Origin: a virus
IMG/VR virus record: IMGVR_UViG_3300035670_000078
Location: 1-64,000 of that record
DNA length: 64,000 nucleotides
Direction: 5' to 3' (one strand)
Positions 1,799-6,361 of this stretch are shown in pieces (positions within the stretch are counted from its first letter, which is position 1; the number at the start of each line of letters is the position of its first letter). The position numbers were made by a program, and so were the translations under genes. The notes under the pieces were generated by a model. It did no database searches. It was not told the origin of the DNA and saw only the letters and a program-made list of their open reading frames with translations.

Positions 1799-1804
1799 GC
1801 AGGT

Positions 1805-1899
1805 GGGGGCCGACCCTTGCGGGTCGGCCCCCTCTCGGAGCGAGCGCCCCGCTCGCTCCGAGGCGTCAGGCGATCGACTCGATCGCCTGACGCCTCGGA
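1805..1899. repeat. cluster of perfect palindromes
   Basis: 1805-1832, 1834-1862 and a 43-bp palindrome 1857-1899 (21-bp arms, 1-nt centre). Confidence 0.9.
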
Positions 1900-2136
1900 T
1901 GGTCCGAGGACCCGACCGGCAGGGGATGCCGGAAAAGGATGGGGCCAATGCTGCCCCGGTTGAAACGGCGCTGGGTGAAACGCCCAATGCCTCACGTCGA
2001 AGCGGTCGGGCGCAAGTGGCGCCCGACCGCCCACGCCCATCGGGCGGTGTGGATCGCCTGCGCTTGGCGCAGGTGGATCCGCACCTGCGCCGCCCTAAAC
2101 TCCCTCAGGCGCTGCGCCTGAGGGAGTTTGATTGCA

Positions 2137-2170
2137 GCCCCGACCCGATGGGTCGGGGCCTTTTGCGTTT
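2137..2170 (+). terminator. intrinsic terminator
   Basis: GCCCCGACCC-GAT-GGGTCGGGGC then CTTTTGCGTTT. Confidence 0.6.
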
Positions 2171-2514
2171 GGGCTGCCCACGCGCTACGCTGCACGCCTA
2201 CGGCCTGCAGCTTGAAAACCGCAAAAACTCCGCGCCTCCCTCCGGTCGGCGCGGAGTTTTTCGAGCCGAGGGGGCAAGCCCCCTCGGGCTCCCCCAATAT
2301 AAAGGACCGTCTCTTCGAGCCGGCCGTTTATATTATAAGAACGACCGTCTCTTCGAGCCGGGTCGTTCGGACGCCGAGGGGGCGGCGCCCCCTCGGACTC
2401 CCCCGCAAGCGGTGGCAACGCTTCGCGTGCGATGATTAGATATCCTTGCCTTCGATAAATATCCGAGGGACGGGAAGCTGCAACAGCCCCAGCAAACTCT
2501 GTGGTACCCGAAAA

Positions 2515-3233
2515 GCAGGAGACGCTGCGCTCTCCTGCACCTCTCGCTACTCGAGCGGCTTCGCCGCTCCCCAGGGGATTGGCCGCAGGCGATATAGATA
2601 CATCTTGAAAAGGGGGGACAAATGACAGGGTGACAGGATGGTTATTTGGATTTCCCCTTAAAGCTAACGCTCGGGGAAATAATGGGGTGGGGTTGGGAAA
2701 AGGGAATGGCCGCAGGCGATTATAAACATTTTGAATGGGGAGGGGGGAGTGGTGGAGTGACAGGATGGTTATTTGGAAATTGGGGTAAGGGTAACGGGGA
2801 TGGCCGCAGGCGAGAGTAAGTGTTTTGAAAAGTGAGGGGGGAGTGGCGGAGTGACAGGATGGTTATTCGCATTTCCCCTTATGGGTAACGAGAATATTTG
2901 GGGATGGGTAATGGGGAGGGCCGCAGGCGGGATAGGGGCATTTTGAAAGGAGAGGGGGGAGGGGTGGGATGACAGGATGGTTATTTGGATTTACGTTTAT
3001 GGGTAACGTGGAGGCTGGGGGAGGGGGACGCCTTCGGCTCCCCCTCCCCCAGACCCCCTCCCCCTAGAGCAGGAGACGCTGCGCTCTCCTGCACCTCTCG
3101 CTCCTAGCGCAGGAGACGCTGCGCTCTCCTGCACCTCTAGCTCCTAGAGTTCTGCCCGCTGGGCAGAACTCGCAGGAGACGCTGCGCTCTCCTGCACCTC
3201 TAGCTCCTAGAGTTCTGCCTGCAGGCAGAACTC
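2515..3233. repeat. REP-like palindromic repeat GCAGGAGACGCTGCGCTCTCCTGCACCTCT x4
   Basis: copies at 2515, 3069, 3109, 3172; interleaved with GAGTTCTGCC..GGCAGAACTC hairpins (3147, 3210). Confidence 0.9.
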
Positions 3234-3561
3234 CGGCCCCACAGTCTCTCATTGCCAGAATAAACCTCAGTGTGTGGGGGCCCCGTGTCGCCCAGTGGGT
3301 GCGGTGGCAGCGCTCCGCGCGCGTCGTTTGCTATCAGCAGCCCACGTCCCTGCTCGCACCCCATCCACCTCGACGGGCAGCATATTTCCTCCGATGCCAG
3401 CTCATTGCTACCCGACCTGCTAGGGGCTACCGCCCCTAGGACCCCGTAGGGAAGGGTGGGGATATTGGTAAGGCCGCAGGCGATAGGGAGACATTTTGCA
3501 AGGGAGGGGGGAGGGGGGAGGATGACAGGATGGTTATTTGAGAATAATGATTAAGGTGACG
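2581..3561. repeat. five fixed-spacing ~89-bp composite modules
   Basis: GGCCGCAGGCG..TTG(A/C)A..TGACAGGATGGTTATT..T(A/G)ACG at 2581, 2708, 2802, 2919, 3472. Confidence 0.9.
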
Positions 3562-3590
3562 GGGAAATAGGAAGAGGGGAGAGGGGGGAG

Positions 3591-4090
3591 GAGAGCGTCC
3601 TCGTCAGGACGCTGAAGAAGCATCGGCCCTCCTCAGTTTGATATCATCACCATCAGCCCCATAGGAGGTGGGAAAAGTAAGTGGGGGGTCGCAAGAGGTT
3701 GGTGGATACGCATCATGCCGCGAGTGTGCACTACACACGAGCGCGGGCTCGGCGTACGCGGGGACGCGCTCTCGCTTCGCGCGCGTCCCCGCCAACGAAA
3801 ATGCGACAGCGCTCCACACCTCCGTGCGGCTATCCATTTTCCTGCTCGCTGCGCTCCCAGAAAAATGGGCCGCACGGGGCGTTCCGCGCCATCGATTTTC
3901 GTTGCACCTCCCCCTTATGCGCTCGTGTCCTCATAGTGCACGCGGCAAATAGCTGCGTATCGACCCCAACCTCCAGCGACGGGGTCCCACTGAGCTGTTC
4001 CCATGGGGCTGACGGCGAGGAAGGTGGGATGAGATAGCAAACGGAGGGGGACTCGATGTTCTAGGTCAGCGTCCTGACGAGGAAGCTCTT
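3591..4090. repeat. large imperfect inverted repeat with self-complementary spacer
   Basis: arms ~3591-3746 and ~3919-4090 (GAGAGCGTCCTCGTCAGGACGCTGA / TCAGCGTCCTGACGAGGAAGCTCTT); internal stems in spacer. Confidence 0.85.
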
Positions 4091-4109
4091 TATTAAATAT
4101 TATAAAGGG

Positions 4110-4853
4110 TGATGATCGGATAGGATCAAGTGAAGAACAGACTGACTTACGCATTGAGCAAGAGGGTTTTGTCTGGAGCTAATTCCAGTTACCGGTCGAC
4201 GAAAAAGCGGAGATCGGGATATAGGGGAGGCTGAACGGTTTATTCGGATGAGAGAGTTGGGAAACTCTCGGGTTCTGGATTTATTCGTAGAGTAGGCTGA
4301 TGATCCCGTCGAGAGACGAAAAACCTCAAAGGGCTGTTGGACTGATTGCAAGTCTCGGTCACTTGGTATCGCACGGTAGGCGCAACATCCAGTTCTGGTG
4401 CGAAGGAACTGCCGCCTATGACGGGTTAAGAAGTGTGTTAGACTTCGAATGCCGTGGGTATCACTCTAGAGAATATTCTAGGGACTCGGGAAATTGAGTT
4501 CTCGAGTTGGACAAACAACAGAGAGTATGAGGATCGAAACCTAGTTCGAGATGACCAGGGGGTGTGGTAAGGTCCACCGTCTGGTCAGGGTAGGGACTGG
4601 GAGTGGGGTTTGGGTACCTCCTCGCACGCATGCAGCATCTCCTAAGGCTGCGAGCGCAGCGAGCACCCCAACATCCTGCACACTCCCCCTCCCCCTGCCC
4701 GACTTGGATCTCAGTTTACCGTTTACGGTAGACCCGGCTAATAAACAGGTGACCCTGGATAATAAGGTGGTCAACCGTGGCGTAAAACCCATGCACCGAT
4801 TATCCAGTGGCCCTGGCTTCCTCTGAAGCGAAACTGCCTCGACTGGGGCAGTA
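4110..4853 (+). ncRNA. candidate large structured non-coding RNA (~750 nt)
   Basis: no credible ORF; many stems with G-U pairs, GNRA loops and nested long-range pairings; boundaries approximate. Confidence 0.55.
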
Positions 4854-4887
4854 GGCGGGGATGGTCCCGCCCTGATGAGCCAGGAGG
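4819..4887 (+). ncRNA. type II hammerhead ribozyme
   Basis: GAAA 4830-33; stem III CTGCCTC/GGGGCAG; GTA cleavage triplet 4851-53; stem I GGCGGGG/TCCCGCC; CTGATGA 4872-78; stem II closed by G-C, C-G. Confidence 0.9.
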
Positions 4888-4892
4888 CGATA

Positions 4893-5105
4893 ATGAGAAT
4901 AACGATGCCGACGAAGTCCGATAAGTGCCCGGCCTGCGGGTCGGGGATGATTAATCGTACGCCCAGAGAGTGGGTGGGCCGGTCAGATATGATGGTCTGC
5001 CCGAAGTCCGAATCCGAAAACGAAGACGCGGGCCTCGAGGGTCTCGTGCTTCGAGAACGGGTCGGCGGAAAGGTGGTGCGCCAGGTGGTCTGGTGCATTG
5101 GATAG
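4893..5105 (+). CDS. small Zn-ribbon protein
   Basis: AGGAGG RBS; CPACG..M..RTPREW, paralogous to 8237-8443. Confidence 0.7.
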   Translation: MRITMPTKSDKCPACGSGMINRTPREWVGRSDMMVCPKSESENEDAGLEGLVLRERVGGKVVRQVVWCIG

Positions 5106-5152
5106 ACTGTACTTCCAGTCTAGTGGAACGAATAAAACAAAAGGAAAATGAC

Positions 5153-5467
5153 ATGCAATGTGAAAACTGTGGTGGTCGGATGATCGGCGATGGCTTCAGC
5201 CGTCCTAGAACCTGTGAGATGGTGTCCTGGGAGGGCCAGGGCATCGAGTCGATTATCTTCTGCGAGGAGGAGAAAGCAATGTTCGAAGTGATCACGTTCT
5301 TCAACGACATGGGCCGTACATGGCACGTCGAGGTTCAGAAGGCGGAGGGCTCCGGTAACGGTGAGCCGTCTCACTCGGTCCACCCCACCTTGGCCGCAGC
5401 TCAGGAGGCAGCACGGGACCTCTTTGCCCAATTCGGTAAGGAGGGTGACGTCCTCTTCCTCGGGTGA
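5153..5467 (+). CDS. hypothetical protein, N-terminal CxxC
   Basis: AAGGA RBS; MQCENCGG. Confidence 0.7.
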   Translation: MQCENCGGRMIGDGFSRPRTCEMVSWEGQGIESIIFCEEEKAMFEVITFFNDMGRTWHVEVQKAEGSGNGEPSHSVHPTLAAAQEAARDLFAQFGKEGDVLFLG

Positions 5468-5544
5468 GCGTCTTCTCTTCCTCCCCTTGGAGATGCACCC
5501 ATCCAAGGTTCGAGGTTACTGGGGGGTGCGAGGAGGTGATGGGT

Positions 5545-5751
5545 ATGTATCAAATTAATGTGAGAGGTCGTGCTTGGTGGTGGTGCGGGGGCCTGTCCCC
5601 CAGCGCCGCCGATGTAAAGGCGATGGAAGAGACCCACATGTGCCCCTCGTGCGGGGGCGGGTTCGTTCCGGGCTTCCTCGGCCCGGAGTGTGAAAACCTA
5701 AACGAAGGGCCGTTCGACGAGGACGGCGGGGGGGACGACGACTATGAATGA
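5545..5751 (+). CDS. hypothetical Zn-finger protein
   Basis: GAGGAGG RBS; CPSCGG; overlaps next start. Confidence 0.55.
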   Translation: MYQINVRGRAWWWCGGLSPSAADVKAMEETHMCPSCGGGFVPGFLGPECENLNEGPFDEDGGGDDDYE

Positions 5752-6031: not shown

Positions 6032-6361
6032 ATGCGTCTTGTTAATCTGACACCACATCTGATCCGTGTTCAACCCGTGCTCGACGGGGAAATCCTCGAG
6101 CTGCCCAGCGAGGGCGTGGCTCGGGTCACCATCACCGACGAAATAATCGGCGACGTCGATGGTATCCCGGTCGTCGCCGGCACCCCCGGTGAGGTCACGG
6201 GTATCCCCGACCCCATTGAGGGCGTCATCTTCATCGTGTCGGCCATCGTCCTTTCGGCGCTCAATGGGAGCCGTAAGGACGTCATGGCGCCCGACACCGG
6301 GCCGACGGCTATCCGAAAGGATGGCCAAGTCTGGGCCGTGACCCGTCTTCGGGCACGCTGA
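6032..6361 (+). CDS. conserved viral hypothetical protein (NLTPH family)
   Basis: AAGGAGGT RBS; NLTPH..P.P.EGVIFIVS..R.DV.APDTG..AIR..G motif pattern. Confidence 0.8.
   Translation: MRLVNLTPHLIRVQPVLDGEILELPSEGVARVTITDEIIGDVDGIPVVAGTPGEVTGIPDPIEGVIFIVSAIVLSALNGSRKDVMAPDTGPTAIRKDGQVWAVTRLRAR

Follow-up and report, generated by a model that had tools for sequence, protein, structure and literature searches.

A moderately structured non-coding stretch upstream of a predicted type II hammerhead ribozyme in a large uncultured phage

The virus record IMGVR_UViG_3300035670_000078 contains, at positions 4110 to 4853, a stretch that holds no evident gene and is followed directly by a candidate self-cleaving ribozyme. 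This arrangement raises the question of whether the DNA specifies a large structured RNA and, if so, whether that RNA is a leader to be cut off or a molecule in its own right. A preliminary description had proposed a new class of giant structured non-coding RNA, co-transcribed with the early operon and released by the hammerhead. The record is linear, 101 kb long and 68% complete according to CheckV, and its first 64 kb are the stretch of DNA analysed here (the window), to which all coordinates refer. The source is a large uncultured freshwater or subsurface phage: the record encodes a family A DNA polymerase with an intein, DnaB-like and PIF1-like helicases and a SbcC-like ATPase, and near-identical DNA occurs in metagenome runs of subsurface and freshwater origin that belong to eight studies. 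Deposited phages include no close relative, the PIF1-like helicase being less than 40% identical to its best matches. Between 688 and about 21 kb, every gene lies on the + strand. Although the phage is otherwise densely coding, about 3.1 kb (1800-4893) are devoid of a convincing gene, and the ORFs 1803-2435 (210 aa) and 3681-4037 (118 aa) within this region have negative codon log-odds.

The view that 4110-4853 harbours no credible ORF was borne out by negative codon log-odds, flat GC contents at the codon positions and frameshifting indels between strains. All ORFs of 34-185 aa on both strands of 4100-4853 yielded log-odds of -0.14 to -0.35 per codon in a codon model trained on 13 long genes of the window, with flat GC1/2/3 values, whereas the small genes on either side reached +0.06 to +0.43 and GC3 values of 0.71-0.86. 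Searches of Pfam and PHROG returned no significant matches for the ORFs in 4100-4853, and ORF 4551-4826 (91 aa) had no relatives among 5.8 billion predicted proteins. Moreover, the two longest + strand ORFs are the ones that are hit by frameshifting indels in strain X5, where ORF 4551-4826 is broken by a 1-nt deletion and ORF 4300-4497 has lost about 10 nt as scattered deletions. The stretch 4110-4853 is truly non-coding.

At the 3' end of this stretch, a covariance-model search detected a type II hammerhead (RF02276, Hammerhead_II) on the + strand at 4826-4885, with a score of 35.2 bits (E 6.6e-5 in 2.1 kb) that is 1.8 bits under the Rfam gathering cut-off of 37 bits. It is the only RF02276 match in the 101-kb record (E 7.5e-7). 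The core is complete and comprises GAAA at 4830-4833, CUGAUGA at 4872-4878 and the cleavable GUA at 4851-4853. The topology is that of type II, with stem III at 4833-4840/4845-4852 and stem I at 4854-4860/4865-4871, both closed by loops, and a short, open stem II. Stems I and III are present in the local minimum free energy (MFE) fold as well as in the covariance model alignment, from which the self-cleavage site GUA/G was read as a predicted break between 4853 and 4854 of the + strand. Type II hammerheads usually have a pseudoknot of loop I with the tail 3' of stem II (PMC3088659). In the present sequence, the only possible pairing of this kind is UGG 4862-4864 with CCA 4880-4882, which overlaps stem II, and the alignment contains deletions at both sites. 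Additionally, the local MFE favours an alternative closing helix, 4812-4819/4877-4884 (CCUGGCUU / GAGCCAGG), that would sequester part of the hammerhead core and could represent a switch or a folding trap. The hammerhead sequence is identical in strain X7. The ribozyme proposed in the preliminary description is thus retained as a near-threshold type II element with a complete core and a predicted cut after 4853, qualified by its score under the cut-off, and judged from its sequence the element at 4826-4885 is probably self-cleaving, with the cut expected after A4853.

The hammerhead was the only element matched by the Rfam search, so that 4110-4853 is covered by no known Rfam family, as its proposed novelty had presupposed. 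At gathering score the 64 kb gave no match to Rfam, GOLLD, ROOL, group I/II introns, RNase P and tmRNA included, and at E values up to 10 the region 3300-5400 returned the hammerhead and chance-level matches only. ARAGORN predicted neither a tRNA nor a tmRNA. Several further candidates were dropped. No additional ribozyme that could permit circularization was detected at the 5' end at E values up to 10, and the C/D-box-like matches at 4105-4147 (E 3-9) are at the chance level. The search for antisense targets in the rest of the window gave nothing longer than 14 nt, and the estimated number of anti-SD-like CUCCU motifs is about as the composition predicts.

The first gene 3' of the ribozyme (4893-5105, + strand) encodes a 70-aa zinc-ribbon-like protein with weak Zn_ribbon matches, a codon log-odds of +0.15 and a GC3 of 0.73, and it is preceded by the Shine-Dalgarno sequence GGAGG at 4883-4887 in the stem II tail. 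This gene is missing in two sister strains, in which 13-18 other letters replace 4889-5091. In the X7 contig, 4888 is linked to 5092 through 18 other letters, and the X5 contig is unlike the window after 4888 and rejoins it near 5086. In the window, the gene is flanked by GCCAGGAGG (4879) and GCCAGGTGG (5080), and the arrangement looks like gain or loss by recombination at these short repeats. Since the gene is missing in X5 and X7, the ribozyme and the stretch before it persist independently of the gene, and GGAGG is not a working Shine-Dalgarno sequence in every strain, because no real gene follows in these two.

Upstream of the candidate RNA, the + strand carries a hairpin at 4066-4089 that forms the right arm of an inverted repeat spanning 3592-4089 (arms 3592-3615/4066-4089, 24 nt, 96% complementary). 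Just 3' of this hairpin lies a U-rich, AT-rich tract (4088-4106), and by its sequence the hairpin could terminate transcription arriving from upstream. A sigma-70-like promoter candidate, CTGACG-18 nt-TATTAT, was located at 4074-4103 of the + strand, within the only AT-rich patch of the region. The promoter-like site suggested in the preliminary description is present, with 9 of 12 matches, and it is unchanged in X5 and X7, but the match is weak by itself, because the region contains four comparable sites against 1.5 expected by chance. An RNA start near 4110 would follow from this candidate. Between 4110 and 4893, no terminator-like sites were found on the + strand. The proposed co-transcription with the early operon agrees with this result and with the + orientation of all flanking genes.

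The surroundings of the stretch have folding properties of their own. The inverted repeat 3592-4089 is about 500 bp long and nested, with folding z-scores of -13 on the + strand and -18 on the - strand, unlike the adjoining candidate. Near-perfect GC-rich hairpin runs occupy 800-2400 and 3001-3200, where the z-scores of 200-nt segments go down to -22 and apply to both strands, and some of the hairpins in 800-2400 are located inside or between the small genes of 688-1798. The region 2581-3561 contains five phased modules of about 89 bp, all in + orientation and found nowhere else in the 101-kb record, each made up of GGCCGCAGGCG, a gap of 39-40 nt and TGACAGGATGGTTATT. The strong two-strand folding of 3592-4089, 800-2400 and 3001-3200 is as in DNA palindromes or terminators. 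Compared with these neighbours, the candidate has a weaker but strand-specific folding signal, and it contains no strong two-strand palindromes.

In the predicted fold of the + strand, the candidate RNA (4110-4853), be it a leader or a non-coding RNA, appears as a moderately structured molecule whose 3' end would derive from the predicted hammerhead cut. The MFE layout begins with a 5' hairpin set (4113-4285) that includes a 7-bp hairpin with a GGGA (GNRA) tetraloop at 4252-4269 (pair probability P 0.99). A long-range helix, 4286-4306/4706-4727, closes the central domain, with P 0.43 for the outer 6 bp and 0.93-0.99 for the inner 14 bp. Enclosed by this helix are a 4-bp hairpin with a GAGA (GNRA) tetraloop at 4307-4318 (P 0.98), a branched variable domain, two hairpins and a rod. 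The variable domain (4364-4463) is built on a 14-bp base stem, 4364-4378/4450-4463 (P 0.87-0.91), and bears three small hairpins. The stems 4334/4516 and 4484-4507 are likewise part of the MFE fold, with mean pair probabilities of 0.39 and 0.44, respectively, and the hairpin 4552-4587 (8 + 4 bp) has P 0.94-0.97. The rod of about 110 nt (4588-4700, P 0.8-0.99) has an apical loop of AUCUCCUAAG, a 5' arm with G tracts and a C-rich 3' arm; its 5' arm (4588-4614) contains five G tracts on the + strand that also fit a G-quadruplex pattern. The + strand of the window has four G-quadruplex-type runs, three of them located at 2.6-4.6 kb. The 3' hairpin domain (4746-4815) consists of CUGGAUAAU / AUUAUCCAG and inner stems, with P 0.66 for 4755-4807. 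Seven of the nine stems listed in the preliminary description are present in the MFE fold, and the remaining two, 4162-4173/4315-4327 and 4216-4221/4303-4308, are absent and compete with helices of P > 0.95.

The MFE of 4110-4853 has a z-score of -4.9 on the + strand (none of 40 shuffles as low) and of -2.4 on the - strand, and the z-score was better on the + than on the - strand in each sub-domain tested. The rod 4588-4700 gave -3.4 on + and -2.3 on -, and the segment 4728-4853, which includes stem III of the hammerhead, gave -4.0 and -1.3, respectively. The stretch thus folds more stably than its shuffled controls in all 40 comparisons on the + strand, but other segments of the same phage reach -4.8. 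In nine other 750-nt segments, which are mostly coding and were assessed with only 12 shuffles each and hence with noisy z-scores, the + strand values ranged from +1.5 to -4.8, and four of the nine were at or below -3. Since the value of the candidate lies at the edge of this range, its folding-energy signal represents the upper edge of the genome background and is not outside it. The ensemble diversity per nucleotide was 0.140 on the + strand (z -2.2; none of 14 shuffles as low) versus 0.230 on the - strand (z 0), and two control segments gave 0.17-0.18. With respect to the loop and pair types that had been put forward as marks of structure, the GNRA loops were confirmed on the + strand, with two capped hairpins there and none on the - strand; two or more occurred in 1 of 80 shuffles. 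G-U pairs, on the other hand, were not enriched (30 versus 34.8 in shuffles). A long-range helix of at least 14 bp was found in 5 of 80 shuffles. Taken together, the models point to a moderately structured + strand fold of 4110-4853 that is better defined than that of the - strand.

The strain comparison was based on contigs of four other runs over 3500-5700, the public runs containing near-identical strains only. The X5 contig (1391 nt) covers 3502-4888 and is about 1.5% diverged outside a patch at 4357-4448. Seven differences affect the candidate outside the patch, at 4108, 4155, 4203, 4205, 4265, 4284 and 4357. The variants at 4155, 4203 and 4205 are at unpaired positions, and that at 4108 affects only a low-probability pair. 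C4265U, present in X5 and X6, converts a G-C into a G-U pair in the hairpin 4252-4269, and wobble steps also keep the pairs at 4284 (G-U to G-C) and 4357 (G-U to A-U). The 1-nt deletion of X5 at 4764 lies inside a bulge. The strain variants are compatible with the predicted fold and few in number.

The patch 4357-4448 differs by about 45% in X5, compared with about 1.5% in the flanks, and is the same in X6 and X8 as in the window. It comprises about 33 substitutions and about 10 deleted bases in X5, the interior 4370-4448 being replaced. The 14-bp base stem is kept in X5, since the deletion of 4370 together with 4371 G>U turns a C and the adjoining bulged G into one U and 4378 A>G turns an A-U into a G-U pair. 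An approximate reconstruction of the X5 interior, in which eight substitutions and about two inserted letters could not be placed, refolds into three hairpins, two of them with GNRA loops (GGGA and GAAA). The z-score of the variable-domain interior was +0.2 for the window version, which is no more stable than shuffles, and -1.8 for the approximate X5 version. On the basis of two sequences, 4370-4448 resembles the variable arms at the periphery of structured RNAs. DGR-type variation was considered for 4357-4448 and dropped, because the changes are not adenine-specific.

Homologues of the candidate were sought at several levels. A blastn search of 50,697 phage records detected no homologue of 4110-4853, and scans of viral, metagenome and genome contigs found none beyond near-identical strains (about 1.5% diverged). 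Since no other relatives were found, a new class of giant structured RNA, as put forward in the preliminary description, is not demonstrated by these data. Viral contigs reached through two neighbouring proteins provided four loci that share only ORF 6032-6361 and possess neither the RNA nor the hammerhead. More than 120 viral loci with a hammerhead-shaped pattern were compared by blastn, nhmmer and all-against-all clustering, and no upstream similarity to the candidate was detected. Chance matches only were obtained in viral contigs with the 16-mer that is invariant among the five modules of 2581-3561 and with two junction 16/17-mers of the candidate. The two-block module pattern gave four chance matches in bacterial coding DNA of metagenome contigs, and the hammerhead 22-mer gave one chance match in genome contigs, in a Dehalococcoidia MAG. 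The search with the 430-aa protein encoded at 10.4 kb retrieved no kin. The only true kin of the phage that was found is L189 (IMGVR_UViG_3300032290_001318), with a DNA polymerase that is 74% identical over all 998 residues, intein included; this contig, 46.8 kb long, is a fragment that lacks the left end.

The same searches provided several observations on other viral loci. Two contigs unrelated to the window (L109:4651-4702, - strand, and L059:5170-5218) carry a type II hammerhead behind about 1-1.25 kb without ORFs of at least 70 aa on either strand, and a gene starts within 15-35 nt; the layout is as described here and the sequences are dissimilar. Clustering grouped 24 upstream regions from 18 viral loci (L024, L030, L069, L096, L110 and others) that resemble each other and lie 5' of type II hammerheads, and several loci of this cluster have two ribozymes about 500 nt apart. 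One viral contig reached through a homologue of ORF 6032-6361 (L005:5340-5931) has a 211-bit Rfam match to Sernc389, a 595-nt 'antisense' family from Saccharopolyspora.

The most economical reading of these data, and one that we consider about as probable as all others combined, is that 4110-4853 specifies the long structured non-coding 5' leader of a rightward early transcription unit and that this leader is cut off by the hammerhead. A promoter in the AT-rich patch 4074-4103, just 3' of the possible terminator hairpin, would most likely drive + strand transcription of the leader, and the type II hammerhead 4826-4885 would cut the RNA after A4853. One product would be an RNA of about 744 nt with the stem III hairpin and a 2',3'-cyclic phosphate at its 3' end, and the other an mRNA with a 5'-OH that begins directly at the stem I hairpin. 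Both types of terminus are known to retard the common pathways of RNA decay in bacteria, so that the cut would uncouple early-gene expression from the bulky leader. Transcription, the RNA start, cleavage and the role of the leader before and after cutting are all steps that we infer. The leader reading agrees with published work: hammerheads flank prophage genes and presumably serve to process long transcripts of phages (PMC3088659), and type II hammerheads beside phage-derived genes of Desulfovibrio vulgaris cleave in vivo (PMC8782182). A length of 750 nt is very great for a leader that is merely removed, which counts against this reading and argues for some further role.

The reading of the preliminary description, which we regard as improbable, is a free-standing large non-coding RNA; the 744-nt 5' fragment would accumulate and act in trans during infection as a scaffold, as a decoy or in an RNA-only assembly, roles of the kind suggested for GOLLD and ROOL. 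The evidence for a leader applies equally to such an RNA, and its size and multi-domain layout, with closing helix, rod and GNRA loops, are closer to ornate RNAs than to a simple UTR. The exchange of the arm 4370-4448 between strains on a conserved base stem is reminiscent of the variable arms of structured RNAs, and both RNA and ribozyme persist in strains that lack the downstream gene. The 3' ends of hammerhead products resist 3' exonucleases, and a ribozyme-made 3' end would protect the fragment in this way. These points are set against the lack of homologues in the searches described, an Rfam result limited to the hammerhead and chance-level matches, the lack of nearby tRNA genes, a variable-domain interior that in its window version does not surpass shuffles and a thermodynamic signal that is modest relative to the genome background. 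It is likewise doubtful, at a similar level, that the locus encodes a new ornate phage RNA whose own hammerhead makes its mature 3' end; such an RNA would accumulate early in infection with a hairpin and a 2',3'-cyclic phosphate at that end and would act in trans on the host or as an RNA assembly, its activity being tuned by the strain-variable arm 4370-4448.

The main alternative to an RNA-level role of either kind, to which we assign a rather low probability, is that 4110-4853 belongs to a DNA-level control region comprising the gene-free left end of about 3 kb (1800-4893), where it might serve replication, packaging, injection or protein binding and its RNA fold would be incidental. The five modules, the inverted repeat and the hairpin clusters nearby fit this explanation, as do the AT-rich patch 4085-4106, the G-tract motifs on the + strand and the modest folding signal of the candidate itself. 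The stretch, however, is free of strong two-strand palindromes, is better folded on the + strand in every sub-domain and in ensemble diversity and has GNRA loops on that strand only; its wobble-type variants keep + strand pairs that would mismatch on the - strand, and a + strand ribozyme at its end makes sense only at the RNA level. A decayed gene, a moron remnant or unrecognised very small proteins would be in keeping with the quick turnover of phage early regions, with the presence or absence of the gene behind the ribozyme between GCCAGGAGG and GCCAGGTGG and with the existence of ORFs of 65-185 aa within the stretch. The codon statistics of all these ORFs, the Pfam and PHROG results, the relative-free ORF 4551-4826 and the frameshifting indels in a close strain make this explanation very improbable.

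Comparison with known systems places the locus closest to hammerhead-processed transcripts of phages and prophages (Perreault et al. 2011, PMC3088659), with which it shares a type II ribozyme in a phage intergenic region, on the gene strand and directly 5' of a gene, as well as the expected effect that a long transcript is cut into pieces. It differs from the arrays flanking genes in that study (PMC3088659) by having a single ribozyme in a 101-kb record, located behind a gene-free structured stretch of 750 nt. A crude measure of the distance between the ribozyme and the ORF before it on the same strand had a median of 7 nt across 120 other viral loci carrying this ribozyme type; for the window it gives 0, owing to the spurious ORF 4551-4826. 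If the RNA is real and stable, type II phage hammerheads would gain a concrete job, a question that has been open since 2011.

With GOLLD and ROOL, the candidate shares the size class of about 600-800 nt, the phage setting and a multi-domain fold. These two RNAs are often accompanied by tRNA genes. The candidate is unlike them in having no tRNA genes nearby, no Rfam match even at E values up to 10 and no homologues, and a ribozyme would generate its 3' end, a mode of end formation that to our knowledge has not been described for GOLLD or ROOL. If the RNA is real and stable, a large phage non-coding RNA with a ribozyme-defined end would join this very short list. At present it stands as a candidate from a single lineage that offers a starting point for bench work and does not amount to a discovery.

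After a cut of the RiboJ type, the mRNA starts with a 5'-OH and a hairpin. The RiboJ insulator itself, attributed to Lou et al. in 2012, reportedly consists of an engineered hammerhead that is placed between a 5' leader and the ribosome-binding site and removes the leader. The arrangement at 4110-4893 resembles it in the position of the hammerhead between leader and ribosome-binding site and in the predicted 5'-OH and hairpin of the mRNA. It differs in being natural and of type II, with a very long structured leader and a role that is predicted, and in possessing an SD-like GGAGG that has no real gene behind it in sister strains. If the stretch is only a leader, the locus would still be the natural equivalent of an engineered ribozyme insulator.
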